A stretch of 64,000 nt of DNA from Dehalococcoidia bacterium (GCA_965220315.1 CBDCPP010000002.1:579088-643087), one strand, 5' to 3'. Shown: positions 8,146-42,178, numbered from the stretch's first letter. Notes: generated from the letters alone by a model not told the origin. Numbers and translations are program-made.

Positions 8146-8171
8146 CCTGTAATCACGGCAGACGACGCATC

Positions 8172-22789: not shown

Positions 22790-24370
22790 CTAGTCGCGTC
22801 CGCTGCGCAAAGCGCGTCCCGGCAGGGCGCCGGTGTGCGTGCCGCGATCGATCACGACACGGCCGTTGACGATGACATAGTCGATCCCGGCCGGATATGC
22901 GCGCGGCATCTGGTGAGTTGCACGCGCCTCGACCGTCTCCGGGTCGAAAATCACGATGTCCGCCTTACAGCCGTCGCGCAAGAGACCGCGATCGCGGAGA
23001 CCCAGGCGCCGGGCGGGAGCGGAGGTCATCTTGCGGATCGCCTCCGGCAGGGAGAGATGGCCTTCCTCGCGCACGAAGCGGCCCAGAACTAGGGGGAAAC
23101 AGCCGTAGGTTCGGGGGCTGGGCCGGTCGCCGAAGACGATCGCATCGCTGGCGATCATCCCCTGCGGGTGGGCCACGAAGTGCGGGATCGTGGCTTCGGT
23201 CACCCACGCCCCGACCCAAGTCACGTGCAGCTCCTCCTCAAGGAGAAGGTCCAGCAGCGCATCCGCCGGCTCCTGCCGGCGCATCGCCGCGATCTCCGGG
23301 ACCAACCGCCCGTCATAGGGCGCGTTCTCCGGCCGGCGGAACGAGGTCAGCCAGCCCACCTCCCAGCGCAGCACCCGTTCCTTGCTGGTCAGCGCTTCCT
23401 TGATCCGCGCGCGGTCATTGGGATTGCGCAACGCTTCCATGAGGCGCTCGGGGCCGCCCTCTTTCGCCCAGTTCGGGAGCAAGATCGTGGCGGTCGTGGA
23501 AGAGTAAGGGTAGGTGTAGCAATCGAAAGTGACATCGCGTCCGTCAGTGCGAGCGGCATCGACGAGGTCCAGATACGCCTCGGCCGCGGCCGGACTGCCG
23601 AGCGGCTGATAGTAGTGCGTGAAGTGGACGGCTCCCCCGCTCATGCGCCCAATATCGAGCGCTTCTTCCCAAGGCTGGAGCGCTCCCTGGCGGCGAAGCT
23701 GCGAGCGAGTGTGCGTGTGGTAGAAGCCGTCGTGGCGAGCCGCCTCCGCCATCAAAGCCGCCAGCTCCTGGCTATCCGCGTACGAGCCCGGCGGATAGTC
23801 GAGCCCCGACGAGAGCGCCCAGGCGCCGTCCTCGATCGCTTCTCGCAATACGGCCCGCATCTCCGCGATCTCTCGCTCCGTTGCGGGCCGATCTTCCCAC
23901 CCGACCGCCCAGATTCGCAGCGGCGCGTTGCCCAGGATGAACGCCATATTGACCGCGACGGCGTTGTCGAGCTTGTGCAGGAGATCGGCCACGGTCAGCC
24001 AATCCGCCGGCGCCGGGGGGTAGCTGTTCAGACCGCAGTCCATCCAGATGAAGCGGTCGCGCTCCGCCGCGCTCTTGAACGGCGCGTGCGAGATCCCGTC
24101 GACCCCGATCAATTCGGTCGTGACGCCCTGGCGCACCTTGGGCTCATGTTCAGGGGCGCCGAGGATGGTCAGTCCGGCGTGGGAGTGGAGATCGATGAAG
24201 CCGGGGCAGACCACCAGGCCAGTCGCGTCGATCGTGCGCGCCGCCTGTAGCTCCGACGGGTCGCCGCGCTGCACGGCCAGCGTGTCGCCATCGACGATGA
24301 CGCTGCCGGCGAAGCTGGGTTCCCCGCTTCCGTCGATGATCGTGCCGTTGGTGATCAGCAGGTCGACCAT
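22790..24370 (-). CDS. N-acyl-D-amino-acid deacylase (D-aminoacylase) family amidohydrolase
   Basis: The internal ATG at 24370 has a GAGGGGA ribosome-binding site. The protein MVDLLITNGTIIDGSGEPSFAGSVIVDGDTLAVQ ... GFIDLHSH matches the metal-dependent amidohydrolase / D-aminoacylase N-terminal pattern. Confidence 0.8.
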   Translation of the reverse strand: MVDLLITNGTIIDGSGEPSFAGSVIVDGDTLAVQRGDPSELQAARTIDATGLVVCPGFIDLHSHAGLTILGAPEHEPKVRQGVTTELIGVDGISHAPFKSAAERDRFIWMDCGLNSYPPAPADWLTVADLLHKLDNAVAVNMAFILGNAPLRIWAVGWEDRPATEREIAEMRAVLREAIEDGAWALSSGLDYPPGSYADSQELAALMAEAARHDGFYHTHTRSQLRRQGALQPWEEALDIGRMSGGAVHFTHYYQPLGSPAAAEAYLDLVDAARTDGRDVTFDCYTYPYSSTTATILLPNWAKEGGPERLMEALRNPNDRARIKEALTSKERVLRWEVGWLTSFRRPENAPYDGRLVPEIAAMRRQEPADALLDLLLEEELHVTWVGAWVTEATIPHFVAHPQGMIASDAIVFGDRPSPRTYGCFPLVLGRFVREEGHLSLPEAIRKMTSAPARRLGLRDRGLLRDGCKADIVIFDPETVEARATHQMPRAYPAGIDYVIVNGRVVIDRGTHTGALPGRALRSGRD

Positions 24371-24515
24371 GGCCTCGTCCCCTCGGCCTCTCCCTCTGTC
24401 GGAGAAGGCTGCGCCAGCGACGCTCGCTGACTGTAGATCAGGAAGTTGCCGCGCGCGCGGGAGGAGTAGTCTGCGGAGACGCCCGGACCTCGTACCGCGT
24501 TGGATAGGAGCCGCG

Positions 24516-25490
24516 ATGGATGTCGACTTCAGCGACCACAACGGCAAGCTCGGACCTCCGGACGGCCGCGACTTCCCGCGCTTCATGGGGCCCACCACGT
24601 TTGCCCGGCTGCCGCGGATCGACCAGGTCACGAGCTGGGATATCGCCGTGGTCGGCGTGCCCTTCGATAGTGGGACGAGCTATCGGCCGGGCGCGCGGTT
24701 CGGGCCGCTCGGCATCCGCACGGGCTCGCGGCTGCTGCGGGCCTACCACCCGTCCCTCAAGGTCGAGCCCTTTCAGGGGCAGCAGGTGGTCGACGCCGGC
24801 GATATCGCCTGCAGCCCATACGTCATCGCGGACGCCCTCGAGCAGATCGAGGCCGCCGCGAGCGATCTGGTCGGCAAGGGCCGGCGGGTCGTCGCCCTGG
24901 GCGGCGATCATACGGTCGCGCTCCCGCTCTTGCGGACGGTCCACCGGGCGCACGGGCCGGTCGCCCTCGTCCATTTCGACGCACATCTCGATACCTGGGA
25001 CACCTACATGAAGGTGCCCTTCACGCATGGGACGCCGTTCCGCCGGGCTGCCGAAGAGGGATTGTTCGTCGTCGGCCAGTCGATCCACGTGGGGATCCGG
25101 GGGCCGCTCTACGGCGCCGAAGACCTGAGCGGGGACGCGGCGTTGGGCTTTTCAGTGCTGGGCAGCTGGGAGATCGAGGAGATCGGGATTGGCGGCGTGG
25201 TCGAGCGCGTGCGGCAGCGGGTCGGGGATCAGCCGGTGTACCTCTCGATCGACATCGACGTGCTAGACCCCGCCTTCGCTCCGGCGACGGGGACGCCCGA
25301 GATCGGCGGCTTTTCCACCAGGGAGCTGGCGGGAATCTTGCGGGGCTTCGCCGGGTTGGAGATCGTCGGCGCGGACGTCGTCGAAGTCGCGCCCGTGTAT
25401 GACCACGCGGAGGTGACCACGATCGCCGCAGCCAATCTCGTGTGGGAGATCCTGGGCCTGATGGCGCTCCGGCGTGCGGCGGTGCGGTAA
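24516..25490 (+). CDS. agmatinase/arginase-family ureohydrolase (agmatinase, guanidinobutyrase or related)
   Basis: An ATG at about 24515 is preceded by AGGAG. The protein shows conserved ureohydrolase blocks (GVPFDSGTSYRPGARFGP, GGDHTVALP, DAHLDT, SIDIDVLDPAFAPATGTPE). Confidence 0.85.
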   Translation: MDVDFSDHNGKLGPPDGRDFPRFMGPTTFARLPRIDQVTSWDIAVVGVPFDSGTSYRPGARFGPLGIRTGSRLLRAYHPSLKVEPFQGQQVVDAGDIACSPYVIADALEQIEAAASDLVGKGRRVVALGGDHTVALPLLRTVHRAHGPVALVHFDAHLDTWDTYMKVPFTHGTPFRRAAEEGLFVVGQSIHVGIRGPLYGAEDLSGDAALGFSVLGSWEIEEIGIGGVVERVRQRVGDQPVYLSIDIDVLDPAFAPATGTPEIGGFSTRELAGILRGFAGLEIVGADVVEVAPVYDHAEVTTIAAANLVWEILGLMALRRAAVR

Positions 25491-25501
25491 TCGGGAGACA
25501 C

Positions 25502-25560
25502 TACTATTGAAGGCACGGAGGGGTGGCAGAGCGGATGATTGCGGCGGTCTTGAAAACCGC
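25502..25560 (+). repeat. direct repeat: upstream region plus 5' half of tRNA-Ser through the anticodon stem-loop (att-like partial copy A)
   Basis: TACTATTGAAGGCACGGAGGGGTGGCAGAGCGGATGATTGCGGCGGTCTTGAAAACCGC matches 27023-27085 (upstream sequence plus tRNA positions 1-43) with a few mismatches. It then diverges abruptly. Confidence 0.7.
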
Positions 25561-25565
25561 AGTAA

Positions 25566-26936
25566 TCACGATCCATGAGCGGCCACACTTGCCGACTGTT
25601 CACGAAGGCTCGCAAAGTCATCGGCTGTGACGCGCTGCTCTGCGCTCGCCATGTCATCCTGGAACTTCACACCTTCGCCTTCCAGCACCTCGCGTGGATC
25701 GCGAACGTCCTCCGGGTCGGTCCATCGGAAGTCGTGGGCTATCTTGCCATCGCTGGTCAGTGCGCGGTACGCGGCTGGGCACTTCCAGCACTGTGTCACA
25801 TGCCGGCCCACGGCTCGGGCAGAGCTGCCAATCACCTCTGCCAGATCCTCGTAGGTAGTCCACTTTCCCGGATGAACGAGTGCTAGCAGACGATGGATTT
25901 CGGACCAGTCCCGTCCGAAGCCTGCCAGCTCGGCAAGGCTCGATCCATCCTCTGTGATCCATAGTCGTGGCCCTTGCAACTTTGATCGGTACTTCTCACC
26001 AGATGCTTCGCTAATGATGTGCCTGGCGAGGCCTGTGGGACTCCAAAAAGTACCATCGGGTTTCCACACCAACGGCCTACGGGGCCTGTTCCGCCAAGCA
26101 GCACATCCTCGATGACGATCGGTGCCGATCCATTCCTGCACTACGTCACGCACCGGCAACGGGAGTGCTGTCCATCTAAGCTCCAGTCGTTCACTATCCG
26201 GAAGCGTCCGCTCAGCGATGAGCGTAGTCACCGCGTTAGCCTCCCGCCGTCCCTGAGAACGCTCGACCGCCGCTCGTTGTTCGGCTCGTCCTGGTGTCAC
26301 GGTGAACTCTTCGACATCACTCACCGGCCACACCGATGTGACAATTAGGATCAGGTCGCGCTCTGTGCGATGGGCGCTGAACTCGATCAATTCGACATCC
26401 ACACCCATTTCGGTGAGCCACACCGCGCTGGCAGTGACTTGCGGACCGAAGGCCGTTGCTAGCAATATGATTCGGGGCCGCCGGAGTAGGTCTTGTTCGA
26501 GTGCACCACCAACGTGTTCTTCCAGCAACACTTGGGCGTCGTCGGCAGCTATCGCTGTTCCCCCCACCTTGGCGAGGTAAGTCGCGTGGCTTTCAGCAAG
26601 TTGCTCAGGAGTGAAACGTGAGGCGAACGCAGCGTACTTGATCGCCTGCATCTCAGTTGCATCGGGTGCCCGGCCGCGCTTCAATTCAGCAACTACCAGT
26701 CGGCCATCCGCGTCGATCCCTAACAAGTCGAGGCGGTCTGAAGCGGTGCCTACCCGACTCTGCCAGCCGCTGAACTCAAAGGTAACGATGCGGATGTCAG
26801 GCCCCAAGATTTCAGGATTCGTGCGAACCCACTCCTGCAAGTCAGCTCGCTCACGAAGGCTGGCTTCCGCGAGGCTGATCGGTTGGGCTCGCTGAGCCTC
26901 GCCCTTACCGACTGCGAATACGAGCTCTTCTGCCAT
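25566..26936 (-). CDS. fusion protein: N-terminal NucS/RecB-like PD-(D/E)xK nuclease domain + C-terminal MGMT-type DNA-binding domain lacking the catalytic Cys (ATL-like)
   Basis: The N-terminus has a DLLGIDADGRLVVAELKRGRAPDATEMQAIKYAAFA motif (D...ELK...Q..Y, as in NucS/DUF91 nucleases). The C-terminus has WTTYEDLAEVIGSSARAVGRHV...PAAYRALTSDGKIA...EVLEGEGV, the MGMT DNA-binding-domain pattern with PAAYR in place of PCHR. It is the sole gene between tRNA-repeat copies A and B. Domain calls are by motif only. Confidence 0.55.
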   Translation of the reverse strand: MAEELVFAVGKGEAQRAQPISLAEASLRERADLQEWVRTNPEILGPDIRIVTFEFSGWQSRVGTASDRLDLLGIDADGRLVVAELKRGRAPDATEMQAIKYAAFASRFTPEQLAESHATYLAKVGGTAIAADDAQVLLEEHVGGALEQDLLRRPRIILLATAFGPQVTASAVWLTEMGVDVELIEFSAHRTERDLILIVTSVWPVSDVEEFTVTPGRAEQRAAVERSQGRREANAVTTLIAERTLPDSERLELRWTALPLPVRDVVQEWIGTDRHRGCAAWRNRPRRPLVWKPDGTFWSPTGLARHIISEASGEKYRSKLQGPRLWITEDGSSLAELAGFGRDWSEIHRLLALVHPGKWTTYEDLAEVIGSSARAVGRHVTQCWKCPAAYRALTSDGKIAHDFRWTDPEDVRDPREVLEGEGVKFQDDMASAEQRVTADDFASLREQSASVAAHGS

Positions 26937-27040
26937 CGCAATCCCTCCTAGCGAGCGAGGTCATCTTCGTAGCGGCGTCTGATCAGGATCGCCAGGTTCA
27001 CAATACGACGCTCATGCGGGTACTACTATTGAGAAGGTGC

Positions 27041-27130
27041 GGAGGGGTGGCAGAGTGGATGATTGCGGCGGTCTTGAAAACCGCTAGGCGCCTCGGCGTC
27101 TCGGGGGTTCGAATCCCTCCCCCTCCGCCA
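27041..27130 (+). tRNA. tRNA-Ser (anticodon TGA), class II with long variable arm, encoded CCA
   Basis: A cloverleaf can be drawn by hand: acceptor GGAGGGG/CCCCTCC, U8, a 3-bp D stem, anticodon stem GCGGT/ACCGC with loop CTTGAAA (U33, anticodon UGA), an 18-nt variable arm, T arm GGGGG-TTCGAAT-CCCTC, discriminator G and CCA. Confidence 0.85.
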
Positions 27131-27636
27131 GTGCATAGGATTTCGTCGCGCTTATGGATAAGGCTATACCGGACCGAGATGAGACAGCCGATCCTGCCGA
27201 CATTTACGCATTCACCGCAGCCTTTCGTTGGTTGAAGCTTGAGGATCGAGTGGCCCTGAAAACGTGGTGATCAGCGCAATGCCAGATGGCACCCTTTAGG
27301 GTCTTCCTCGCGATCTGCCAATCCGCTGCCGTCATCCTCCTTGATGCGGTCAGCGCAGCCCCGCACAGGCGCGATCGAAGCCCCGGCTGAGAGAAATGAG
27401 ACCGTGGAGGGCTACCGAAGTCTTGAAAGAGAGGGTTGCCGGAGCTGACGTAGAGCAGGGTGTATCGTTAGGGTTGACACCACCTGTTGAGACGCCCATG
27501 GGCAGGGTAGAAGGTGCGATGCCCAATTACTGTGGTGGTCTCGAATATGGTGGACCAAGCCGTTGGCGAAATCGGGTGGGCCAGCCGATTGCCCTGGCAA
27601 TGATGGCTTCCCTGCCGCGAGCAATCCTCTGAAAGG

Positions 27637-28275
27637 ATGATGAAGATGGTTGATGAACGAGAGATCGGGAATCGGGTCAAAGGCAGTGTCATCGGGCTGC
27701 TCAAAGGCACGGGAGAGGTCGCTGCAACCGCTGTGGGTGAAGTCGCCAACCTCACCCGAACGACAGTCAAGGAAACTGGCGAGACAGGCGGCGCAGCCGC
27801 CAACCTAGCGGTGGGAGCCGTCAAGGGAGCCATTGACGCCGTTGGCGACATCGGCGGCGAAGCGGCACAGACCGCGGCCACGACCCTCACCGCGACGGTC
27901 GACGCGGCGACGCAAGTCGGAAGCTCCGTCGGAAACGCCGCCAAGGGAGCGGTGATCGGCGCCGTGGAAGGCTCCTCCGAGGTCGGGGCGGAGTCGGTGG
28001 AGGCGATCGGCAAGACCAGCCGGGCGGCCGTTAGTGAAGCGGCGATGATCGGTGCTGACGTCACGACTGCGGCCGTTGGAGCCGTTGAGGGCGCTATTGA
28101 GGCCGCCAAGAAGACGGGGATCGGTGTGGAGGACGCCGCGGCGGCGGCGGCAACCGGCGCCATTGAGGGCGCGGGCGAGGTCAGCGAAGCGGCTGCCGTA
28201 CGAGTGCGGCGTTCTGTGGAAGGGGTGATTCAAGGAGTGCAGGTGGTCGCCAAGACGGCGAGTGGGAAGAGCTAA
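27637..28275 (+). CDS. Ala/Gly/Val-rich repeat protein (LEA-like / amphipathic 11-mer repeats), function unknown
   Basis: The 212-aa ORF contains many GAV(I/E)GA(V/I)(E/D)A-type repeats. It is the only ORF between tRNA copies B and C. The gene call rests on repeat periodicity alone. Confidence 0.45.
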   Translation: MMKMVDEREIGNRVKGSVIGLLKGTGEVAATAVGEVANLTRTTVKETGETGGAAANLAVGAVKGAIDAVGDIGGEAAQTAATTLTATVDAATQVGSSVGNAAKGAVIGAVEGSSEVGAESVEAIGKTSRAAVSEAAMIGADVTTAAVGAVEGAIEAAKKTGIGVEDAAAAAATGAIEGAGEVSEAAAVRVRRSVEGVIQGVQVVAKTASGKS

Positions 28276-28590
28276 GCGGGTAGCGCTGAGGGCCTTGCGT
28301 CGCTAGTCGACAGTGAGGGGCCTCAGCCGTACCGAGGGCGCGAGGTTCAGCCCGCCTACGCGAGTAGCGTTCCTTGGCGAGCCGCTTCGCGGGGTTCGAT
28401 CAGTTTGGCACCGACTCCGCATGGGCTGAGCTGGTATGTGGTCCTCTTTAGCTATATCGACGGCTGTCACCCATTTGTCACCTAACTCGTCGACAGGAAG
28501 TATTGAAGGCAGGGACTTGTAGCACCGTTCCCTCGAGAAACGTGGGCGGAAGCGGAATCGTTGACACGCGCCGCCACCCAACAGATCCGC

Positions 28591-28657
28591 TGCGGCGGTC
28601 TTGAAAACCGCTAGACGCCTGAGTGTCTCGGGGGTTCGAATCCTTCCCCCTCCGCCA
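28591..28657 (+). repeat. direct repeat: 3' portion of tRNA-Ser from the anticodon stem to CCA (att-like partial copy C)
   Basis: TGCGGCGGTCTTGAAAACCGCTAGACGCCTGAGTGTCTCGGGGGTTCGAATCCTTCCCCCTCCGCCA matches tRNA positions 26-90 with about 6 mismatches. The 5' half is replaced by unrelated sequence, although TATTGAAGGCA from the tRNA upstream region persists at about 28512. Confidence 0.7.
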
Positions 28658-28845
28658 CACCAATGCAAGAAAACACTTATTTTATAGGGATAGTGACCAA
28701 TCTACGGTAAGTCATTATCACTTAGTATATCCCGCACGATTTGGCAGCCAGTGCGCCTCCTGGTTCTGGGCGACCGCAGCGCGCAGGTAAACGACGCCAC
28801 GCACAAAAGTGCTTGTTTGCTCGGGAACATCGGCCCACCGGCGGA

Positions 28846-29415
28846 TTAGATGAACATCTGCGGGAGCATGTCCCAACTCAGGATCCGGGCCACATCCCCG
28901 GAGAGCTTGGGGTCTGCGCTTTCCCCCGGCACATCCCAGAAGACGGTGCCGGGGTCCCCGTCGCCGATATCGGCCAGCAGCAACGCCAGCGCCTCGCTGC
29001 GGCGCTCGGGGGCGATCTCGAAGTAGTCACAGAGACTCGTCAGCGGGATCCCGAGCCGCGAGCGGCCGTTCACCCGCACCCGCACCCCCTCGAGGTTGCC
29101 GTGCTTCACATGCCAGGAGATGCTCTGCGGCGTCATGTCGACGAGGCGCGCCACCTGATCGCGGGAGATCACCACCTTCTGCTCGGGGGAGCTACCGGTG
29201 GAGGCGATCACCACCTCCTGCTCGGGGGAGTGGAAGGTGGGGGAGATGCGCGCGTCCGGCCGCGAGCCGTTCCACTTTTGGTTCGCAAGGAGTACCAGCA
29301 ACATGTTATCGCCCACGATGGCCGCGATCGCTTCCGCGGGGACGTGGTGCTCCAACGCGAGCGTCACCAGCCGCTCGATCTTTTCCTGCAGTCCTTCGTC
29401 TTCGGTATCGGCCAT
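28846..29415 (-). CDS. excisionase-family (MerR-like) HTH DNA-binding protein
   Basis: The C-terminal VISRDQVARLVDMTPQSISWHVKHGNLEGVRVRVNGRSRLGIPLTSLCDYF matches excisionase / HTH_17 domains. It sits next to the att-like tRNA fragment and downstream of the terminase genes. The start is taken as the internal ATG (ORF-track start 29469). Confidence 0.5.
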   Translation of the reverse strand: MADTEDEGLQEKIERLVTLALEHHVPAEAIAAIVGDNMLLVLLANQKWNGSRPDARISPTFHSPEQEVVIASTGSSPEQKVVISRDQVARLVDMTPQSISWHVKHGNLEGVRVRVNGRSRLGIPLTSLCDYFEIAPERRSEALALLLADIGDGDPGTVFWDVPGESADPKLSGDVARILSWDMLPQMFI

Positions 29416-29646
29416 CGTCCTCGCCCTGCCTGCCCTGGCTCGCCAACCACAAAAAAGCGATCCTCGCAATACCCTAGCGTAGTGGCCATGACAAATGGGC
29501 CGTGACGGGCTTTTATGGAATAAGCGCCTCAGCGCCCTCAGAATCGGGCTGGCGAGCCTGAACGGCCGCTGACGCCCCCCCCAAAAAAAGGCGGGGAATG
29601 CGGTCCTTGGGGCCGTCCGCCGTCGCCAACGCCCACTGACCGCATC

Positions 29647-31299
29647 CTAGACGGCCTCCGTGGCCAAGGGGTGGCCGTCGAGCGTTCCCACATGCACCCC
29701 GGGCGACGTCTCCATCTTGCGCAAAAAGGCCAGCACGTAGCGCCGCGTGTCCATGGCGTCGCCGTGCTGGTCGACGGTGCGGTTGGCGACGTACTTATCG
29801 CCCGTATTGGGGTTGCGCTGCAGGCGGCGCTTGTAGACGACGAACTCATGGCGCGAGTGCCGGCAGCGGCGGTCGATCGTGAACTTGTTGGCCTTGAGCT
29901 TCTCCGTCAGCAGCGTCCAGAGGGAGCGGTCGTTGTCGACCTTGCGCTCCACGTAGATCCCGTGCGGCGCCAGCTTCTGGGCGAGGGAGTAATTCATGGC
30001 CCCTTCGGAGGGATCGGGGCAGACGGCGAAGACGGGCGCGATGGCGTGCAGCTGCAGGACATAGGCCACGATCTCATCCAGGCCCACGGCATCCTTGCGA
30101 TAGAGCTCCCCGAATTGATGCAGGTGCCCGGTGCCGGAGACGCCATAGGGACAGACGGCCGTGGGGTCGCCGCCGCCGGCGCCGTAATCGATGCCGAAGA
30201 GCCGGATGCGGGCCTGCGACCAGCGGAAGGGCGGGTCGTGGGGATCGGTCGCCATGGTGCCGTCGACGTACTCCGGGTACCAAAGGGTGTTGTTCCCGCC
30301 CACGAAGGCATCGACAGCCGTCTTGGGGAACTCCTGCAGGAACTCGTACTCGGCCCCGATGTAGCCCTTCTTGCGGCCCTCCCACCAATCCCAGTTGATG
30401 GCGAAGCCGAGGCAGCCATGTTCCTCGTAGCCGGGCGCGACGCAGGGCCGGTCCTCCCAGGTTTCCATCGACCCATCCCCGCGGCGCCGCAGCCCGCCGC
30501 AGTCGGCGTGGGGCTGCAGGTGGATCCCGATCCACTTCCCCGCCTCGCGGTCATAGCGCCGCGGCCGCACCCACCAGGGGTACATGATGCCGTGCGTGCC
30601 GGGGATGAGGCCGTAGCGCGCCGCCCAGTAGCGGTTGGCGAAGAAATCGCCGATGTCGGTGATCTGCTCGGCGTTCTCGGGGATCTGCCCGCCGCTCGAG
30701 GTCGACACCTGAAAGAGCTGCTCGGCCTGGGGCTCGACGGCGGCGTAGGTTTCCTTGGCGTAGTTGTGCTTGGCGGCCTCATCCCAGAGCGCGATCTTGG
30801 TGGTATCGCCGCGGCCGGCGTCCTCGGTCGAGGGAAAGACATTGATTTCGCCGCCGCCCTTGATGTTGAGATCGAGCTGGGTGGGCGGCCGCTGCGGGGC
30901 CACCTGGATGTGCCCGGGCAGGTGGTCGTACATGTAGCGCTGCTTGCCATAGAGCTTCTTCGCCTCGCGCTCATTCTGCGAGAACTCCTGGTAGATCGCG
31001 CCCGGCTGGCCGTAGAGCACGTTCCAGAGAATGTAGCCGCCGATGTACCAGGACACGCCGATCTGCCGCCCCTTGAGGATGACGGCGCTGTGGCCGGCCG
31101 TCAGGATCTGGGGCAGCGTCCAGCCGGTGGGTTCGAAGATGGGATTGTCGAAGAAGGCCCAGTCCTCCATGAGCTGGGGCCCGGCCTCGCCCAGGATCTG
31201 CAGATGGTGCCGGAAAGCGCCGAAGGACCGCCGTGCGAAGGCCCGTTCGATGTCCTCGCCCGCCGCCAGGGCGACCTGGTCAACCAGCTTCCTTGCCAT
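29647..31299 (-). CDS. phage terminase large subunit (TerL; ATPase + nuclease)
   Basis: The ATG at 31299 has a GGAAGGA ribosome-binding site. The protein MARKLVDQV... has a Walker A-like ILKGRQIGVSW and a C-terminal nuclease region with conserved acidic residues. Length (about 550 aa) and architecture fit TerL. Confidence 0.75.
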   Translation of the reverse strand: MARKLVDQVALAAGEDIERAFARRSFGAFRHHLQILGEAGPQLMEDWAFFDNPIFEPTGWTLPQILTAGHSAVILKGRQIGVSWYIGGYILWNVLYGQPGAIYQEFSQNEREAKKLYGKQRYMYDHLPGHIQVAPQRPPTQLDLNIKGGGEINVFPSTEDAGRGDTTKIALWDEAAKHNYAKETYAAVEPQAEQLFQVSTSSGGQIPENAEQITDIGDFFANRYWAARYGLIPGTHGIMYPWWVRPRRYDREAGKWIGIHLQPHADCGGLRRRGDGSMETWEDRPCVAPGYEEHGCLGFAINWDWWEGRKKGYIGAEYEFLQEFPKTAVDAFVGGNNTLWYPEYVDGTMATDPHDPPFRWSQARIRLFGIDYGAGGGDPTAVCPYGVSGTGHLHQFGELYRKDAVGLDEIVAYVLQLHAIAPVFAVCPDPSEGAMNYSLAQKLAPHGIYVERKVDNDRSLWTLLTEKLKANKFTIDRRCRHSRHEFVVYKRRLQRNPNTGDKYVANRTVDQHGDAMDTRRYVLAFLRKMETSPGVHVGTLDGHPLATEAV

Positions 31300-31861
31300 C
31301 GTGTGTTTCCTTCCAGGCGGCCCATTCCTTATCCAGCGCCATCGTCTCCTTGGCCACCGCGCGCCAGCGCTCCTCCAGATGCTTGGGACAGGTCGCGAAA
31401 TCCCGCGTCGGCGCTCCGCCCGCGCCCACGACGGGCAACGCGGCCGCTTCCTCATCGAGCTCTTTCCGCTTGTCGATCAGGATCGCCAGGCTCGTGCTCA
31501 TGCTCTTCACCTCGAGCGCGGTGATGTCGTCCCGGGCCTCCCACCGCTCGAGCTGCCGCTCGATCAATCCCACTTCCCGCCACAGGATGTCCGCGATCTT
31601 TGACCGCAGCCGATCGCGCAACTCGTGGACCGCCCGTTTCCCACCCCGGCGCAGATCCGGCGGCGGCCGCACATCCTTCCGCTTCGCCCGCGGCTTCTCG
31701 CCCCGACGCTTCCGCGCCAGCGCGATGATGTGCCGGACTTGTTCGTAGCTCAGCCCCACCGCGTCCGCGATCGCCTGGTACGTCACCCGTTGGCCCGGCG
31801 GAGCGAACCACATCGCCTCCACCTGCTCCCGGTCCGCAGGCGTCACTTGTCGCTCGGGCAT
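31280..31861 (-). CDS. putative terminase small subunit / HTH DNA-binding protein
   Basis: The 193-aa protein has a sigma-70 region-4-like HTH (RVTYQAIADAVGLSYEQVRHIIALARKR) followed by a charged coiled region. It lies immediately upstream of terL and overlaps it by about 20 nt. Confidence 0.5.
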   Translation of the reverse strand: MPERQVTPADREQVEAMWFAPPGQRVTYQAIADAVGLSYEQVRHIIALARKRRGEKPRAKRKDVRPPPDLRRGGKRAVHELRDRLRSKIADILWREVGLIERQLERWEARDDITALEVKSMSTSLAILIDKRKELDEEAAALPVVGAGGAPTRDFATCPKHLEERWRAVAKETMALDKEWAAWKETHDGKEAG

Positions 31862-31891
31862 CCGCCCTTTCGGTACTTAGCTACACACTGT

Positions 31892-32000
31892 GCTGGCAGT
31901 CTAGCTAATCCGGAGTTCCCAATGGATCTTCAGACGATCAGTTGCGCCCCAGCCCACGATTGCGGCCGGCCGTGGAGGAAGTCCTCCCGCGCACGCTGGT
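31892..32000. repeat. about 110-bp imperfect direct repeat, copy 1 (duplicated gene 3' end + downstream regulatory region, immediately upstream of terS)
   Basis: GCTGGCAGTCTAGCTAATCCGGAGTTCCCAATGGATCTTCAGACGATCAGTTGCGCCCCAGCCCACGATTGCGGCCGGCCGTGGAGGAAGTCCTCCCG closely matches 32411-32530. Confidence 0.7.
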
Positions 32001-32056
32001 CATCGTGCTGCAGGGTATGCGCTGATCGGTGCCGTGTCGTTCTCCTTCGGGCTGCA

Positions 32057-32365
32057 TCAAAAATCAGTAATGTCGACGTGCTTCGTGGGTCGATACGATG
32101 CATCGGCATCCGCGATCGACTGGCAGTACTCGCACTCGGTTCCTTCGAGGACGGCCCGGACGATGATTTGGTGGTCGGGGCCAACCCCTTCCCAGGTGTG
32201 ACCGATCGCTGGATAGTCACGGCTCGGAGACAGGCCAAATTGATCCTCGGTGGACAGGGGCACAATTCCCCCTGCTCGCTCGGGTCCAGCAATCCGACCA
32301 AGCACCATGTGATAGTGGGACACGCCCGGCACGTAGGTGACAGCTACGGTCACTGCCTCGGTCAT
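32057..32365 (-). CDS. hypothetical small protein (102 aa), phage-associated
   Basis: MTEAVTVAVTYVPGVSHYHMVLGRIAGPERAGG... has an AGGAGG ribosome-binding site and balanced composition. A duplicated C-terminal module from the 32449 gene family is appended downstream in another frame. Confidence 0.4.
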   Translation of the reverse strand: MTEAVTVAVTYVPGVSHYHMVLGRIAGPERAGGIVPLSTEDQFGLSPSRDYPAIGHTWEGVGPDHQIIVRAVLEGTECEYCQSIADADASYRPTKHVDITDF

Positions 32366-32410
32366 AGCGGGCCTCCTAGTTGTTCTTGAGGTAGCCGGAC
32401 GTCTCAATGC

Positions 32411-32530
32411 GCTGGCAGTTTAGCTGATCCGGGTTCCCCAATGAATCTTCAGACGATCAGTTCCGCCCCGGCCCAGGCTTGCAGCCGGCCGTGGAGGAAG
32501 TCCTCCCGTGCGCGGTCCTCGTCGTAGGGC
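32411..32530. repeat. about 110-bp imperfect direct repeat, copy 2
   Basis: It closely matches 31892-32000. It comprises the last ~22 codons of the 32449-32703 ORF (DRAREDFLHGRLQAWAGAELIV, stop) plus about 45 nt of downstream non-coding sequence. Confidence 0.7.
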
Positions 32531-32703
32531 AGGGTGTGCGTCGAGACCCGCACGCGCTGCCCGCGGGGATAGTCGACGTAGAAGCTCGAGAGCCGCCCGT
32601 GCCAATCCCGGCTGCACTTGATCCGCCGCGCGTCATTGACGTCCTTGCGCACGGCCCGCAGGGCCCGCATGAGGTTCACCGCGGGATCCACGCCCGCGGT
32701 CAC
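32449..32703 (-). CDS. hypothetical small protein (84 aa), phage-associated
   Basis: MTAGVDPAVNLMRALRAVRKDVNDARRIKCSRDWHGRLSSFYVDYPRGQRVRVSTHTLPYDEDRAREDFLHGRLQAWAGAELIV. Its C-terminus and 3' flank are duplicated at 31892-32000. Confidence 0.4.
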   Translation of the reverse strand: MTAGVDPAVNLMRALRAVRKDVNDARRIKCSRDWHGRLSSFYVDYPRGQRVRVSTHTLPYDEDRAREDFLHGRLQAWAGAELIV

Positions 32704-32851
32704 GCGGAGCAGAGGGGGCAGCAGGCGCTGATCATGGGGGCATGGTAGCGAGGAAACAAGCGCATGCGCGAGGATCAGAGAGGAATCTCGTGATCCCGAA
32801 GTGCCCGATGGTCTACGCTGTAGAAAGTGACGCGTAGCGCGCTGGTATCAG

Positions 32852-33220
32852 TTAAGGGGTGGCAGGTGGATCGTCCTCTTCGTCGGAGTCTGAGCCCGCC
32901 CCGGGGAAGCCTTGCTCGCGCAAGCGTTGCCCGAGATCCTGGTAGTGCGCGCGAATGCGAAGACCAGCCTCCAGCGAGACTTGCAAGCTCCGAATTCCGG
33001 TCCGCGTTCGCGCGGTCGTTTCATCGTCTCCTGACAGGTCAGATAGTGCCTCTTCAACAGCTGCATCAAAGCGGTCCAGAAACGCTTGCAGATCTAGTGG
33101 CTGCAATGGATCAAGACCTTCGACGACAGCTGCGACAAAGATCCCCACGCTCTCAACCTGCAGGTCCTCCGGCTTAAAGTTACCGAGGTCCCAGTCCGAC
33201 CCCTGTCCTTCCTCGCTCAT
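32852..33220 (-). CDS. hypothetical acidic protein
   Basis: The internal start gives MSEEGQGSDWDLGNFKPEDLQVESVGIFVAAVVEGL... within ORF 32852-33364. Composition is acidic and there is no recognisable domain. Confidence 0.35.
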   Translation of the reverse strand: MSEEGQGSDWDLGNFKPEDLQVESVGIFVAAVVEGLDPLQPLDLQAFLDRFDAAVEEALSDLSGDDETTARTRTGIRSLQVSLEAGLRIRAHYQDLGQRLREQGFPGAGSDSDEEDDPPATP

Positions 33221-33231
33221 GGGGCCTCCGT

Positions 33232-33789
33232 TCACCGCGCACAGGCGGGCAACGGCTTCCCGACGCGCGCCTGTGCGAAGCAGGCCCCCGTCCTCTGTTG
33301 AGAATCCGCGATGACGTCGGGGAGCTCCCGGTTGTCGGTAAACGCGGTGATCGGTTCCTTCCATTCGGCCGTGCCGCCCTGCGGGGTCACGTAGCGCAGG
33401 ACATAGATCAGCTCGAACCAGTTGTATCCGTCGTCGCCATCGTCGACTCGTCTCTCGACGACGACCCAGTCGTGGGACGGCGGCTCGGCCTGCTCCAGGC
33501 GCCGCGTGGCGACCCGTGCGCTGGCGGCATCGCTCCGGGCCGCGCTGATCTCGCTCCGGAGATCGTCGATCACGGCCTGCATGGTGGCGACGTCCGCCTG
33601 GATCCCGCTGGGATCGTAGCGCTCGAGGGCTTCCACAGCCGTGAGGCGCGTCTCGACGCTTTGGATCCGAGTCCCGATGTCAACGCGGCGCTCCTGCGCA
33701 AAGCGATACGTCAAGAAGATCGCGGCCACCAGAGCCCCGACCACGACCACGCCGACGAGCGGGACCAGGAACGGACGCCACCGACGCAT
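33232..33789 (-). CDS. membrane-anchored hypothetical protein (single N-terminal TM helix)
   Basis: MRRWRPFLVPLVGVVVVGALVAAIFLTY gives an N-in TM anchor. It is followed by a coiled, charged ectodomain. Confidence 0.45.
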   Translation of the reverse strand: MRRWRPFLVPLVGVVVVGALVAAIFLTYRFAQERRVDIGTRIQSVETRLTAVEALERYDPSGIQADVATMQAVIDDLRSEISAARSDAASARVATRRLEQAEPPSHDWVVVERRVDDGDDGYNWFELIYVLRYVTPQGGTAEWKEPITAFTDNRELPDVIADSQQRTGACFAQARVGKPLPACAR

Positions 33790-34038
33790 AGGTGCTCCCT
33801 TGCAACATGAGCGGAACTCGTTGCCACACCAGTCCTGCGAACGGAGCTACAAGGGAGCGTGGAGGCTCCGCTCGGTTCCATTCGCAGGGTGTGGCGGCAG
33901 GGACGCTACGGGATAAGTGAGGTGCCGTCTAGGCCCAGACGGTTTCAACGTAACCCGCGCCAGTGCTAGGCTCACGCGGGCCCGCGACCCTGGATGCCAG
34001 CGCCCGCGTAGCAGCCCCCTCTCAGAAAAGAGACGAGT

Positions 34039-34471
34039 AGTGAAACTTCGATTTATCTGGTTAGCCGAGAAGATCGAACCCCGACCCGATGGGAAGATCA
34101 ACATGACAGGGGTCTTCAATACGCTAAAGTTTTCAGCGTTTCCCGCGACTTATCCCCAGATTGATTGTCTACTCGAATTGTCTGTGCCACTGGAAGAACT
34201 AGAGGAAAGGAAGACGGATCATCAGATCCGTCTCACTCTGACCAACCCCGCCGGTCAAGTGGTCCAGCAGACACCGGACGACGTCGGCTGGTTTCAACTC
34301 CCCAGCCGTGCGGAAGGGCCTACGCCAAGACCCGGGGTGTTCGTGGTTCCGGCAGCACTACAACTACAGTTTCGGAACCTTCGCTTCGATCGCCCTGGGG
34401 ACTTCGCCCTGCGCGTAGATCTCGACAACACAAAGCTCTGGGAGACACCGGTTCTGATTGAACAGGCGTAA
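34039..34471 (+). CDS. hypothetical protein
   Basis: A GTG at about 34039 follows a GAGACGAG site. The 144-aa product is VKLRFIWLAEKIEPRPDGKINMTGVFNTLKF..., with no family recognised. Confidence 0.4.
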
Positions 34472-34534
34472 AGGCAAACGCCGCGTAGATTATGGGCGGG
34501 GGGGCTGCTGCGTCCACAGAGGCCTCTCTTCGGC

Positions 34535-34774
34535 TCACCCGGCCCCGGGTGACAACACCCGCTGGCCCGAGTATCCTACCCAGGCCGCCGCCACCTCGCG
34601 TGCTCGAAGAAGGCCCCGCCCCCAGCGGGGTCGTTTGCATTCTACCACCTTGATCGCCCGCCGCGCATTCCCGGCGTACTTCTTGCAAGTGGCCGAACAA
34701 TACTTCTTCAGTCGCCAACCCTGAAACAGACCACCGCATTGCTTGCAGCTCTGCGTCACTTCTCGCTCGGCCAT
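34535..34774 (-). CDS. small zinc-ribbon protein (CxxC ... CxxxC)
   Basis: MAEREVTQSCKQCGGLFQGWRLKKYCSATCKKYAGN has two Cys pairs. It is convergent with the upstream gene. Confidence 0.35.
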   Translation of the reverse strand: MAEREVTQSCKQCGGLFQGWRLKKYCSATCKKYAGNARRAIKVVECKRPRWGRGLLRAREVAAAWVGYSGQRVLSPGAG

Positions 34775-34823
34775 GCCCTTAGCTTAGCCCAGCCCCCCAA
34801 GACCTCCATAAGCTCCAGGGATG

Positions 34824-34842
34824 GGGGGGGGGGGGGGGGGGG
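34824..34842. repeat. G19 homopolymer tract
   Basis: AGGGATG followed by 19 consecutive G, then ATTTTGGG. It lies in a 1.3 kb stretch (34780-36140) with no convincing ORF. Confidence 0.9.
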
Positions 34843-35093
34843 ATTTTGGGCAGAGGATCCCCGATCGGATCCGGAAAAACCACCCGATATGGGATCTGTA
34901 TCGAGAAGATGCTCCGCTCTTGTTAGGAGAAAGTTCGGCCTGCCGGCTGGCTGGCGAGGACGAGTCGGTCCCGGCAGGCCTCCTTTTGGGGTGAGGACAG
35001 ACGAACGGAGCCATTCGTGCTCTCTGGCCTACCCCACCAGAGAAGAGCCACTAGCCGAAGGGGCGACCACAGTAGCAGTTGGGTAGTCCCATT

Positions 35094-35167
35094 CCCTATC
35101 GGCTCCCTATCCCATCCCTATCCAAATCCCAACCCCCCCCCCAGGGTTATATGTCCCACTCCCTATC
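35094..35167. promoter_or_regulatory. iteron-like array: four CCCTATC repeats (three at exact 11-bp spacing, the fourth about four helical turns away) flanking a C10 tract (35133-35142)
   Basis: CCCTATC occurs at 35094, 35105, 35116 and 35161. The 11-bp phasing places the sites on one DNA face. A TGTGTACACA palindrome lies at 35288-35297 and AT-rich sequence lies downstream. Confidence 0.45.
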
Positions 35168-36214
35168 CCATGCCCTGGTCGCAGACGCAGAGAGGGCCTG
35201 CGGCGACGACTCCAAACGTACGGTCAATGCGGAAGAGCCCGGCCCATGGTCCATGGTGGGCCATCGGATCTCTTAAGACCCTACAGTGTGTACACATTGA
35301 GTACTTAATAAGGAAAGGATGGGCCGGGATGGACCATGGGCCACCGAGACACTCCCGGTTCCGGCCGCGGCCACACGCCGCATCGATCGCGGCGGTCGCC
35401 GCGCCGGGAGAAGGGATGCGCCGCCGCGCGTTCGTCGGGAAGGCCCGCTAGCGACCCGGGCGATCCCGCCGCCCACGCCGCCGCGCAGGGAGCAGTGGCC
35501 GCGCTGCGCGCGACTGTCTCTTTCGCCCCCGTTCCCGCCGAGCACGCCGCTCGCTGAACCGCCACGGCGCTGACCTAAGCACGGCCGGGGAGCGCCGCAA
35601 CACCTGGAACGGGGGCAGGCGCGGCCTGGGGCGTGAGGCCCTCCATCCGCGGCCGCGATCGCCGCGCGCCACGCGATCCGCCCGCGCCGGCCGCCGCGCC
35701 TGCCCCCTGTCGGTTCAGCGTGGCAGGCCCAGCGCCGCATCAAGGGGCGAGCAGGCAGCCCGCTCAAAAATCGGCGCGAAGAACGCACGGTAGGCCTGCC
35801 CCCTGGACGCGGCGCATCTGGGAGGCGGCGGCGGTGGCCATGCCTCCTGCTATGGGTTTGCGCTCCATGTGCACCCTGCGCAGCCCGCTCCGCGACAACC
35901 CATCTCCGAACGCGACAGCCCCTCGCCCAGCGCAGGCGCAAGCATGTTCGGCTGCGCTGGAGGACCAGCGCTGCCGATGCTCGCCTGCACGTCCTGGTCA
36001 AGGGTGCGGCTACGCCCACGCCGGAGGACCGGCGCGCCCTTGACCAGGACGGGACGGAAACCTGCCTGCCTGGTTGCCCGATCGTATACCCCGGCCTCAA
36101 GAGTGAAGGCTACGCCCAGGCCGGAGGACCGGCCTGCTCTTGACCCCGGAGTCATGGGGACAAGCGACCAGGCCGGCGACGGGAGCCGGAGGGATAAGGG
36201 AAAGGGACCCAACC

Positions 36215-37351
36215 ATGACCGACCGCCAACACCACGAGGACGACTGCAGCGAATGCGGAGGCACCGGCATCGCACAAGAGGCCGCCATCCCAGTGCCCGG
36301 ACCCGATGGCTACTGCCAGCCCCGCCAGGGCACTGGCCAGACCAGGGAGGACCCAGTGACCACGACCGACGACACGCCAACCATCAACCTCCACCGCGAC
36401 TGCTGCCCCGACGCAGCCATCGAGAACGACCCACCCGATCCGGACACGCACCTGGCCTACGAGGTCGACCCGCCTGAGGTCCAAGCCACGGGAATCATCC
36501 TCAAGTTCGACACCGATGGGACCTACCAACGCATCGAGCAGACGGGCCCCCTTGGCCTCGAGCTGATGCAAAAGCTCGTCGACGGCTACATCGAGCGCGT
36601 CATCACCCCCAGCTTCGACCTTTGGGTGAACGAAGAGGGGCTCATGCGCGACGACTTCGAGCCTAACATCGGGGCCAGCTACCTACTCGGCAAGCACGGC
36701 GCCCCCAACACCATCATCCTCGGACCCGCCTTCATCGCCGCCAGCAACGACGATGGAGAGAGCGTGCCCGCACCCACCGAGGTGATCGACATCTGCCTCG
36801 CCAGCCTCCACCAACTCGGCTACACGCAGGGAACGGAGAGCGCTGGCTGCGACGAGTGCGGCGGACTCTGCGACAACGACCACCGGCCCATCGCAGGAGG
36901 GAGCGGTGCATCCCCCGAAGGCACGGCCACCGTCGCCATATCAGCCGAGGTCCTCATCGTCGTCCCGCTCGAGCGCGGCGAACGCGCTGCCCTCGCCCTC
37001 AACAACAACGCTGGCAGCGACGCCTGGTCCCGCGTCGTCGAGAACGCCTACACCCGTCTCTCCATACAGATCGACGGCGTCCACCAGCCCGCCGAAGACG
37101 TTGCCTGGGGCCAGCCCTTTGTTGTAGCAAGCCCGCCACCCATCGCCGGAGGCGCGGCCATCACACTCCCCTCCAACGTCACGATGGACCAGGTCCTGGC
37201 CCTGGTCGAGGCCGACGACAACCTGGGGCTCTGCACCCACTGCGGCGCCGAGGCCAGCGGCATCGAGCCGGACGCCAACGCCTACGCCTGCGAGGACTGC
37301 GGCCGCAGCGCCGTCACCGGCGCCGAAGGCCTGCTGCTGGCCCTGGTCTAG
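36215..37351 (+). CDS. DUF3846-like phage/plasmid protein with two Cys-rich zinc-ribbon ends; contains two copies of the PIAGG linker motif
   Basis: The internal ATG at 36215 follows AAGGGAAAGGGA. The protein has an LKFDTDGTYQRIEQTGPLGLELMQKLVDGYIERV ... DLWVNEEGL (DUF3846-like) core. The motifs HRPIAGGSGAS (36886) and PPIAGGAAI (37141) precede C-terminal modules. The DUF assignment is from memory of the family, not a search. Confidence 0.55.
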   Translation: MTDRQHHEDDCSECGGTGIAQEAAIPVPGPDGYCQPRQGTGQTREDPVTTTDDTPTINLHRDCCPDAAIENDPPDPDTHLAYEVDPPEVQATGIILKFDTDGTYQRIEQTGPLGLELMQKLVDGYIERVITPSFDLWVNEEGLMRDDFEPNIGASYLLGKHGAPNTIILGPAFIAASNDDGESVPAPTEVIDICLASLHQLGYTQGTESAGCDECGGLCDNDHRPIAGGSGASPEGTATVAISAEVLIVVPLERGERAALALNNNAGSDAWSRVVENAYTRLSIQIDGVHQPAEDVAWGQPFVVASPPPIAGGAAITLPSNVTMDQVLALVEADDNLGLCTHCGAEASGIEPDANAYACEDCGRSAVTGAEGLLLALV

Positions 37352-37598
37352 CCGTGCGCACCTGCGACCACTGCCAGGCAGTGATGCGGGGCGCGCGCCG
37401 CCGCTACGGCTGCGACTACTGCCGCGCTCAGCTCTGCAGTAAATGCTACGACGCCCACCGCTTCACCCCCAGCCATCGCCCGCGTCCCTGTCCGCAGGCG
37501 GCGCGGGCCCAGCCCGCGTAGCCCCTTCCATCCACCCAGCACGCACAGAACAGCCCCGGCGCCGGCCGGGGCTGTTGCGTTAAGCGAAGGACACTCCC

Positions 37599-41650: not shown

Positions 41651-42178
41651 TGAACAACCGCAGCACCCACGCCACTACCAGGACCCGAGGACCGCCAAGC
41701 TCCCTCTCCCTCCCTCGATAAGAAACAAAGCCCAGCCCTACCCGCGCCCAGCCAACTTAAGACCGTGGGCCTCGCACCCCGGCCGCGATTCCCCGGGGAA
41801 ATCCCCCAGGGGCAGACGGTTTCGCGCGCGGAGGGCCCGCTCAGGGGGGCGGTTTCGGGCGATCGGGCCCCGATCACGCCGCCGGCGCCCGCCGCGGGCA
41901 TCCACAGCAGGGGCCTTGTGGGACACGCGATCGAGGGCGTGGGGGCCCGCCAGCCACCGCTGAGCGGCTCCTGGAGGGAAATTCGGGGGTTCGAGGCTGG
42001 AGGAGCGGCCGATATCCGCCTTTCCGACCGGCGGATGTGCGTGCGCCTCAGGCCCAGTGTCAAGTAGCTTTACACGTGATCCATGCCGCCGCGTGTGGCG
42101 AAATCGAACGGGCGCCCTGCGATCGAGGTTGCCAGCAGGAAAGCCTTCCGTACCATGTTTCCTGAAAACGGAGAGCCG

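Follow-up and report, generated by a model that had tools for sequence, protein, structure and literature searches.

Three tRNA-Ser(TGA) pieces at a Dehalococcoidia integration hotspot probably record two unrelated events of different age

Does a tRNA gene with a fragment of itself on either side record one kind of integration or several? The question is raised by a locus in a 64,000-nucleotide (nt) stretch of a Dehalococcoidia bacterium genome (GCA_965220315.1 CBDCPP010000002.1:579088-643087; hereafter the window, with positions counted from its first letter). An intact tRNA-Ser(TGA) gene, copy B, lies there between a partial copy of its 5' part upstream (copy A) and a partial copy of its 3' part downstream (copy C). 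A preliminary description of this DNA had taken the two intervals for equivalent cassettes of about 1.47 kb, inserted one after the other. Our comparison with related genomes favours a different history: with a probability of about two in three (0.68), the three pieces go back to two events at a two-sided hotspot, unrelated to each other and far apart in age. The older event would have brought a single gene, encoding a NucS-like nuclease fused to an ATL domain (ORF456), into the native tRNA gene; the recent one would have brought a mobile island, to which copy C appears to belong.

The three pieces are real, as had been described, with small corrections to their limits (Table 1). ARAGORN called a single tRNA gene in the window, copy B, which scored 55.7 bits against the Rfam tRNA model (threshold 29). 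A 21-mer, TGCGGCGGTCTTGAAAACCGC, is shared exactly by all three copies, starting at 25540, 27064 and 28591, always on the + strand; these are its only occurrences in the window, and none of 100 dinucleotide-preserving shuffles matched it. This core spans the whole anticodon stem-loop, preceded by the 3' strand of the D stem and one further base. Copy A had been placed correctly to within a few bases, but it covers tRNA positions 1-44 rather than 1-43; its tRNA part is identical to copy B at 43 of 44 positions, and the 17 nt upstream, which contain a TACTAT -10-like box, align with a 2-nt indel. The coordinates given for copy C were exact, but the piece starts 4 nt before the anticodon stem, so that the 3' strand of the D stem and one more base fall within it. 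The wider geometry also stood: the A-B insert measures 1462 nt (25561-27022) and the B-C insert 1460 nt (27131-28590), with start-to-start spacings of 1524 and 1527 (A-to-B in relatives, 1525-1526). Each interval holds one convincing open reading frame (ORF), of 456 and 212 amino acids (aa), and no integrase domain was recognised in any large ORF of the window by Pfam or PHROGs. A consensus promoter and terminator scan of positions 25300-28900 detected nothing. As a side observation, the regions around B (27028-27186) and C (28532-28698) gave sub-threshold matches to Rfam sX4 (33-38 versus 70 bits), a proteobacterial small RNA (sRNA) family whose model evidently holds a tRNA-derived part; attachment-site (att) scars made of tRNA fragments can attract an sRNA annotation.

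Table 1 Features of the tRNA-Ser(TGA) locus and its surroundings in the window
Feature	Position	Strand	Basis and remarks
Amidohydro_3 gene	22790-24370	-	Pfam; left neighbour, among metabolic genes
Arginase-family gene	24516-25490	+	Pfam Arginase 3.4e-92; ends 10 nt short of copy A
Copy A, 5' part of tRNA-Ser(TGA)	25500-25560	+	17 nt upstream and positions 1-44
ORF456, NucS-like nuclease and ATL fusion, candidate anti-phage gene	25566-26936	-	PADLOC, NCBIfam, Pfam
Divergent intergenic region carried by the insert	26937-27040		Four-genome alignment; insert-borne copy of tRNA upstream sequence at 27023-27040
Copy B, intact working tRNA-Ser(TGA)	27041-27130	+	ARAGORN, Rfam
Variable spacer 3' of the tRNA	27131-27636		506 nt here; about 190 nt in L083 and L084; about 2.5 kb in L085
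Ala/Gly/Val-rich repeat protein gene, 212 aa	27637-28275	+	Shared backbone; not a cargo gene delimited by C
End of backbone homology, GCTAGTCGACAG	28302-28313	+	Ortholog of CTCGTCGACAGG in the relatives' spacer between the Ala-rich and luciferase genes
172-nt segment, then exact 12-mer CTCGTCGACAGG (28486-28497)	28314-28497	+	Sequence inspection
Pre-C region	28501-28590	+	28501-28524 like native tRNA upstream sequence and positions 1-12; then 66 nt of unrelated filler
Copy C, tRNA-Ser(TGA)-derived	28591-28657	+	Linear positions 24-90; 62/67 (93%) identity to B
ORF207, in the L214-collinear part of the island (28658-40847)	28846-29469	-	tblastx/blastn collinearity; L214 island has an ORF210
Terminase-large-subunit-like gene (terL)	29647-31299	-	phrog_2 3.9e-15; 76% nt to L214
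DUF3846 protein	36140-37351	+	Pfam; 81% nt to L214
DUF7007/DUF3560 protein, 1082 aa	37599-40847	+	Pfam; kind found on conjugative plasmids; DUF3560 also in L214
Mrr-helicase-methyltransferase fusion, 1785 aa, type IIG/ISP-like	42083-47440	+	Pfam Mrr_cat_2, ResIII, Helicase_C, N6_Mtase

The preliminary description had seen in the shared segment the likely recombination core, with A-B and B-C as two separate integrase-less cassettes inserted serially and mobilised in trans. Several features agree with this: the geometry and orientation of the fragments are correct in both intervals, the end of A and the start of C delimit one 21-nt core, and the intervals are nearly equal in length, with one ORF each and no integrase. 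The identity of the core is indeed exact, but a metagenome scan with it returned more than 120 matches, nearly all in intact tRNA-Ser genes of unrelated bacteria from many phyla, with no close relative and no half copy, and the core is thus not diagnostic. Since it is conserved across so many phyla in tRNA-Ser(TGA), its presence in A, B and C demonstrates tRNA-Ser ancestry and does not call for a common recombinase.

We therefore turn to what related genomes hold at the locus, using three metagenome contigs of close relatives (L083, L084 and L085), an outgroup (L211) and a relative of the right-hand island (L214). All three close relatives match the window's order: copy A, ORF456 (86-90% aa identity), an intact tRNA-Ser(TGA), then the Ala-rich gene. 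The junction GC/RGTAATC is identical in all of them and in the window, A-ORF456-B is 89-92% identical to the window's in nucleotides, and protein matching places the same arrangement on about three further contigs. Neither a third core nor a second T arm was found in the three relatives, where a convergent luciferase-type gene follows 40 nt past the Ala-rich gene and leads into more backbone genes. None of these lies within the window; the window genome's own luciferase ortholog (P0248) is on the same 974-kb contig. The outgroup, whose Amidohydro_3 and luciferase proteins are 84% and 76% identical to the window's orthologs, has one uninterrupted tRNA-Ser(TGA) between these two genes, with a DUF4440 gene upstream of the tRNA and ECH, LytB and FA_desaturase genes downstream; copy A, ORF456 and the Ala-rich gene are all absent at its locus.

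This comparison treats the two intervals very differently. The A-B interval is absent from an outgroup with a single tRNA and present in the three sequenced relatives. The gene of the B-C interval, in contrast, is found in relatives that lack C, and this interval is therefore not an element. This Ala-rich gene, 85-87% identical in nucleotides and in the same position in the three relatives, appears to be ordinary shared backbone downstream of the tRNA; its protein gave no family or structure match. The near-equal lengths of 1462 and 1460 nt are probably a coincidence, because C is absent from the relatives. The preliminary description had itself proposed such a comparison, holding that the same three copies with identical content in related strains would mark an ancient fixed arrangement. 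The outgroup has an uninterrupted tRNA; the three relatives share A-ORF456-B, and to that extent the arrangement is inherited and in part speaks against the proposal.

Which tRNA pieces, then, are native? In the relatives, the 100 nt that precede A show significant alignment to the 100 nt upstream of the outgroup tRNA (GCGAGATGACTCTAGCCGAGGCGT; p 0.000-0.006), whereas the 100 nt preceding B bear no relation to that flank (p 0.23-0.77). On the other side, the tRNA of the outgroup and copy B of the window are followed at equal distance by GATTTCGTCGCG (p=0.002), and orthology to the outgroup's native tRNA flank covers the first ~20 nt past B. These matches mark the DNA before A as the native 5' flank and the DNA after B as the native 3' flank, which leaves ORF456, the promoter region and a second tRNA copy from about -20 to +44 as the foreign DNA. 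Copy A is evidently the 5' part of the native tRNA, displaced upstream by the ORF456 insert, and copy B is evidently a rebuilt host gene, its 5' part to about position 44 supplied by the insert and its 3' part native.

The native flanks decide against two other histories. One composite element of about 3 kb, carrying its own tRNA-Ser (B), might have split the native gene into A (1-44) and C (24-90). The two are complementary halves that overlap by exactly the 21-nt core, and the phenomenon exists in mycobacteriophages (PMC10865867). However, it is the 3' flank of B, not that of C, that is orthologous to the native tRNA flank, the relatives have A and B without C, and the 3' flank of C is island DNA; this history is refuted, and we give it next to no chance. 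The same result rules out a cassette bounded by B and C. With the Ala-rich gene in place without C in the relatives, the B-C part of the two-cassette proposal is largely refuted: the flank of B is native by the outgroup, that of C is island DNA homologous to L214, and ORF456 homologues elsewhere are not associated with tRNAs. Two equivalent serial cassettes are thus very improbable, and no result here favours mobilisation in trans.

We propose instead that in the older event a 1.46-kb segment entered the native tRNA gene at the anticodon-arm region. Its cargo would have been the NucS-like/ATL gene, a promoter region and its own tRNA copy from about -20 to +44. This would be the minority "5'-fragment" configuration (159 islands against 3760 others in Islander, where 2083 of 3919 sites are anticodon-centred; PMC4383910): the tRNA copy of the insert would now form the 5' part of working B, and the native 5' half with its upstream flank would have been pushed 1.5 kb upstream to become copy A. 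The likeliest agent, we infer, would be a tyrosine integrase acting at the anticodon-centred core, its gene since gone or never on the segment. Site-specific recombination might also have played no part in the origin of copy A: a tandem or segmental duplication of the tRNA gene with its promoter could have been followed by the arrival of a gene that took the place of the upstream copy's 3' part. The repeat does span 17-20 nt upstream of the tRNA, including the -10-like box, and the insert is one gene without integrase or other mobility gene. Yet the end of A coincides exactly with the 3' end of the anticodon stem, the classic boundary of an anticodon-centred att block (PMC4383910). Moreover, the upstream flank of B is unrelated to the native one past -20 and that of A is native, the pattern of a foreign insertion with a tRNA-like att site, and the codon composition of ORF456 is foreign. 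We consider the duplication distinctly unlikely.

The sole gene of the insert is a candidate defence gene. The N-terminal PD-(D/E)XK NucS-like domain of ORF456 matched the PADLOC profile PDC-S11 (1e-47 over aa 6-238), covering profile positions 3-230 of 347, with an ATL domain in place of the profile's C terminus. The NCBIfam NucS match is partial (1.4e-7) and the PDB match to EndoMS/NucS weak; a D...ExK motif, IDADGRLVVAELK, can be read in the translation. The C-terminal MGMT-type domain passed the Pfam DNA_binding_1 cutoff narrowly (28.2 bits; cutoff 27). Since it lacks the PCHR cysteine, reading CPAAYRAL here and CPAAHRVL in close homologues, it is assigned to the ATL type, and homologues carry the JGI name Atl1. 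GC content at third codon positions (GC3) is 0.61 in ORF456 against 0.77-0.89 in neighbouring genes. Only 5 nt separate the core of copy A from the ORF456 stop codon, and pseudogene debris is absent. Distant homologues (58-74%) are not adjacent to tRNAs, so the gene spreads by other means too. One of them, 74% identical, lies on a 7.1-kb contig (L086; ENA ctg279146) between type I restriction-modification (R-M) genes (Methylase_S and N6_Mtase) and a gene for a 594-aa RVT_1 reverse transcriptase. This defence-island setting supports a defence role for the nuclease-ATL family; PDC systems are themselves "guilt by embedding" predictions, not validated ones (PMC10855318).

How old is the insert, and has it stayed? 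In an alignment of four genomes (the window and its three close relatives), variable columns make up 27% of ORF456 third codon positions, 19% of the ORF456-B intergenic region, 29% of the 17 bases upstream of the tRNA part of A and 53% of the DNA just 3' of B. In the tRNA part of A, one column of 44 varies (binomial P 2e-5 to 1e-3). This sole change is a C-to-A substitution in the D loop that the window shows in A and B alike, whereas every copy in the relatives and the outgroup has retained C. Because the half gene tracks a change in its functional partner, gene conversion is the best explanation, and the tRNA part of copy A has apparently been kept identical to B in this way; selection acting on copy A itself may be an alternative.

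A-ORF456-B would since have been inherited vertically through lineages now about 10-12% apart in DNA. Close ORF456 homologues were found on contigs of 974178, 808483, 53032, 35846, 27085, 13980 and 13455 bp. We compared the luciferase gene in 15 listed members of a 23-member cluster. Eight longer contigs (113 kb-2.56 Mb) with a luciferase gene at least 94% identical in aa have no ORF456 homologue on record; they include, among the members listed, the window genome's three closest relatives (98-99% luciferase identity). In the luciferase tree, ORF456 carriers are intermixed with apparent non-carriers, and the ORF456 tree agrees with it at the deepest split, which separates the window from all other carriers. 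The simplest reading of the trees suggests a single ORF456 insertion before these lineages diverged, followed by several losses; each loss would most simply be a recombination between A and B that restores one intact tRNA.

The same patchiness would look different if A-ORF456-B were a minimal integrase-less cassette that targets the 5' half of tRNA genes, is served by a recombinase in trans and is still on the move. The cassette would then consist of one defence gene and an att segment of ~63 nt with the tRNA promoter and 5' half, its patchy distribution in close relatives would reflect ongoing mobility, and half-tRNA A would be conserved as a working site, either as attL (the left att site) or as an antisense or 3'-end element that the tRNA promoter drives and that serves the nuclease gene, and not through gene conversion alone. 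What we see is one site, one cargo and identical junctions in all sequenced carriers, and we judge ongoing mobility decidedly improbable.

Copy C tells a separate story. Homology between the window and its relatives ends at 28313, and from C onwards the DNA belongs to an island whose only known relative is in L214. There, an intact tRNA-Ser(GGA), oriented like C, stands with its 3' end against the corresponding end of the island. DNA homology between the window and L214 starts in the T arm (28627) and runs through CCGCCA into the island (CACaAAT..AAGA..CTT.TTTT.TAGGG); the flank of copy B, in contrast, is unrelated. This continuity from T arm to island assigns C to the right-hand island, and copy C is evidently a tRNA-derived attachment segment at the island's tRNA-proximal end. 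In both cases, the window and L214, the island abuts tRNA-Ser sequence, and the family appears to target tRNA-Ser genes. In L214, a second serine tRNA, tRNA-Ser(CGA) (17681-17771), is located 4.6 kb from the island-bearing tRNA-Ser(GGA). A weak resemblance between the 3' flank of the outgroup tRNA and DNA 72 nt after C (p 0.05) falls in a stretch that aligns with the L214 island and was treated as chance.

In the recent event, this mobile island would have arrived to the right of the Ala-rich gene with its terminase-like, DUF3846, DUF3560/DUF7007 and type IIG genes. It is probably recent and strain-specific, at least 12 kb and probably 20-35 kb long. The preliminary description had called the DNA beyond C prophage-like. 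C does adjoin a mobile-element region, but the term overstates the case: right of C, Pfam and PHROGs recognised no portal, capsid, tail, lysis or integrase gene, only the terL-like gene, and the other ORFs are of the plasmid type (DUF3846, DUF3560, DUF7007) or without a match. The terL product itself falls just below the Pfam Terminase_6N cutoff (21.5 against 22 bits). Among ~5.8 billion protein clusters it has one homologue (66% aa), which sits in the collinear island of L214, and its own cluster contains the window genome alone. Scans of viral contigs gave no terL relative; one phage contig with its own tRNA-Ser came up and was irrelevant.

The type IIG restriction enzyme, which matched PADLOC REase_MTase_IIG at 4e-91, is probably cargo of the island. 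Further observations concern the genes after it: a RelE-like toxin ORF (47430-47696) and an SDH/ClpP-like protease (48425-49276), then a 2952-aa surface protein with LRR, PKD/Big_9 and cadherin-like repeats (51283-60141) next to an 813-aa clostripain-family (C11) peptidase (61384-63825), the last two with very high GC3. Composition changes right of C, where GC3 is 0.84-0.91; the type IIG gene, at 0.83-0.90, resembles the rest of that region.

By what route did C reach its place? The DNA to its left holds further traces. An exact 11-mer, TATTGAAGGCA, lies in 28501-28524 within a 15-nt local match to A that has one mismatch (ungapped, 19/24), a resemblance with a Smith-Waterman p of ~0.003 against shuffles. 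No tRNA is completed by the DNA left of C: ARAGORN made no call there, and Rfam gave a sub-threshold tRNA-Sec match (30 versus 47 bits) with a mispaired acceptor stem. Directly before the tRNA-upstream-like segment stands the 12-mer copy at 28486-28497. The 12-mer contains the SalI palindrome, and its two copies, 172 nt apart, might reflect a duplicated target site or an additional att site. C could accordingly be an intact attP-like region, the island having entered at the 12-mer by another route, or a damaged attL on a duplicated tRNA, or it could mark integration into an older leftover tRNA fragment. An assembly chimera at the junction is unlikely, with the join (28313/28314) lying outside any repeat; the join is known from one assembly.

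The last of these routes implies an accretion: an older integration of the anticodon type would have brought in the spacer and the Ala-rich gene and left the native 3' fragment displaced as C; the relatives would later have lost C, and the window's island would have integrated into the leftover fragment instead of B. Such tRNA-gene (tDNA) fragments retain the T arm and 3' end and are usable as secondary targets, and tandem arrays are documented (125 in Islander; PMC4383910). C also carries the clade-typical variable-arm base (TAGACGCC), like the relatives' tRNAs, and the B-C spacing would gain a historical cause. Against this, the immediate 3' flank of B is native, which means that the 3' half of B was not supplied by an element. 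C is absent in 3/3 relatives, where the convergent stop codons of the Ala-rich and luciferase genes are 40 nt apart, so a very neat deletion would be needed, and backbone homology stops 278 nt short of C. We regard the accretion as unlikely. Two resemblances in this interval were tried and dropped. One was a possible, degenerate relic of an anticodon arm in the spacer that separates B from the Ala-rich gene (relatives, GCGGTCTGGAA; window, GTCTTGAAA at 27404-27428), with p 0.15-0.43 against shuffles; the other was a T-arm-like TCGCGGGGTTCGA at ~28386 (p 0.2).

Several points weigh against two unrelated events as we have reconstructed them. For the older event, no recombinase was seen and its integrase origin is drawn from geometry; a minimal cassette accounts for the tight insert no less well than the decay of a larger element would, the 17-20 nt of promoter-proximal sequence in the repeat would also be expected from plain segmental duplication, and the absence of ORF456 in close relatives comes from protein-database records, not from locus sequences. 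For the recent event, the tRNA-Ser preference of the island family comes from two cases, the window does not reach the distal end of the island, where its integrase and a second tRNA fragment would be expected, and C lies 278 nt within the non-homologous DNA, off its edge. Classical integration into B would, moreover, put the island directly after B and not past the Ala-rich gene. The 12-mer repeat (28302-28313 and 28486-28497) and the equality of 1462 and 1460 nt are left without explanation.

Beyond these two events, the locus is variable to the left and to the right of the tRNA. Five genomes differ in what they carry on either side of it within the frame of the conserved Amidohydro_3 and luciferase-type genes, and the hotspot named in the preliminary description is evidently a true tRNA integration hotspot, two-sided, with several of its variable pieces predicted to be candidate defence genes. 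On the left, the arginase insertion (24370-25494) is specific to the window: the three close relatives lack it and have ~70 nt from Amidohydro_3 to A. Its best genome homologues, 58-66% identical, come from scattered phyla, and none of the contigs carrying them contains the 21-nt core. The right edge of this insertion (~25495) lies ~22 nt upstream of the tRNA start and nearly coincides with the points where the A/B repeat (-17 to -20) and the pre-C segment (-12, 28501) begin. On the right, L085 has a 2.5-kb insertion (6721-8779 in locus coordinates) ~20 nt past the tRNA, with a PDC-M38A/B candidate defence pair, an AbiL-like ATPase and a DUF3226 protein (PDC-M38 matches 3.6e-84 and 6.9e-31), and a fragment of 89 aa similar to the terminal part of a DNA-adenine methylase; this insertion has no tRNA fragment at its borders. 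A short-read Logan contig of the same strain (L081) stops at window position 27127, the 3' end of tRNA B. It does so although B and C share no 31-mer, and strains in the sample may differ directly downstream of the tRNA.

A neat pattern of fragment, tRNA and fragment can thus mix scars of different age and owner, and it is the comparison with relatives alone that separates them. The locus would document the rare 5'-fragment configuration in Chloroflexota, with a half-tRNA identical to the working gene. Its candidate defence islet, seemingly lost repeatedly, offers a simple natural system for the gain and loss of a defence gene without a resident integrase. The right-hand island represents a little-known family of two members that combines a terminase-like gene with plasmid-type DUF3560 and DUF3846 genes and appears to use tRNA-Ser genes.

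How does the locus compare with known systems? Cis-mobilisable elements (CIMEs), described in Streptococcus, are att-flanked remnants of integrative elements without recombination genes. A-ORF456-B likewise is flanked by att-like direct repeats, lacks an integrase and could in principle be excised by a related integrase or take part in accretion; it differs in having no known cognate integrase or parent element and in a distribution that fits vertical descent with losses. The N-terminal 230 residues of ORF456 resemble PDC-S11, but about two-thirds of that profile is matched, and the fusion to an MGMT/ATL domain without the PCHR cysteine falls outside it. In tRNA-dependent lysogeny (Guerrero-Bustamante and Hatfull 2024, PMC10865867), as at this locus, a tRNA gene is accompanied by partial copies and, close to an integrated element, by a further complete copy of its isotype; here, in contrast, B appears to have been rebuilt at the junction, with a native 3' flank, and is not an element-encoded replacement. 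The closest likeness is to the tDNA islands of Islander: an intact tRNA with direct partial copies in a permitted configuration (A, the 5' piece, upstream and C, the 3' piece, downstream, both in direct orientation on the + strand), an identity block bounded at the anticodon arm, cargo of foreign composition and content that varies among relatives. It departs from them in that neither interval's ORF is an integrase, both inserts, at 1462 and 1460 nt, are shorter than the 2-200 kb range of Islander, the A-B unit is of the rare 5'-fragment type (159/3919) and the B-C interval is no island. The kind of locus is nonetheless already known: it is the ordinary wear of a tRNA integration hotspot.

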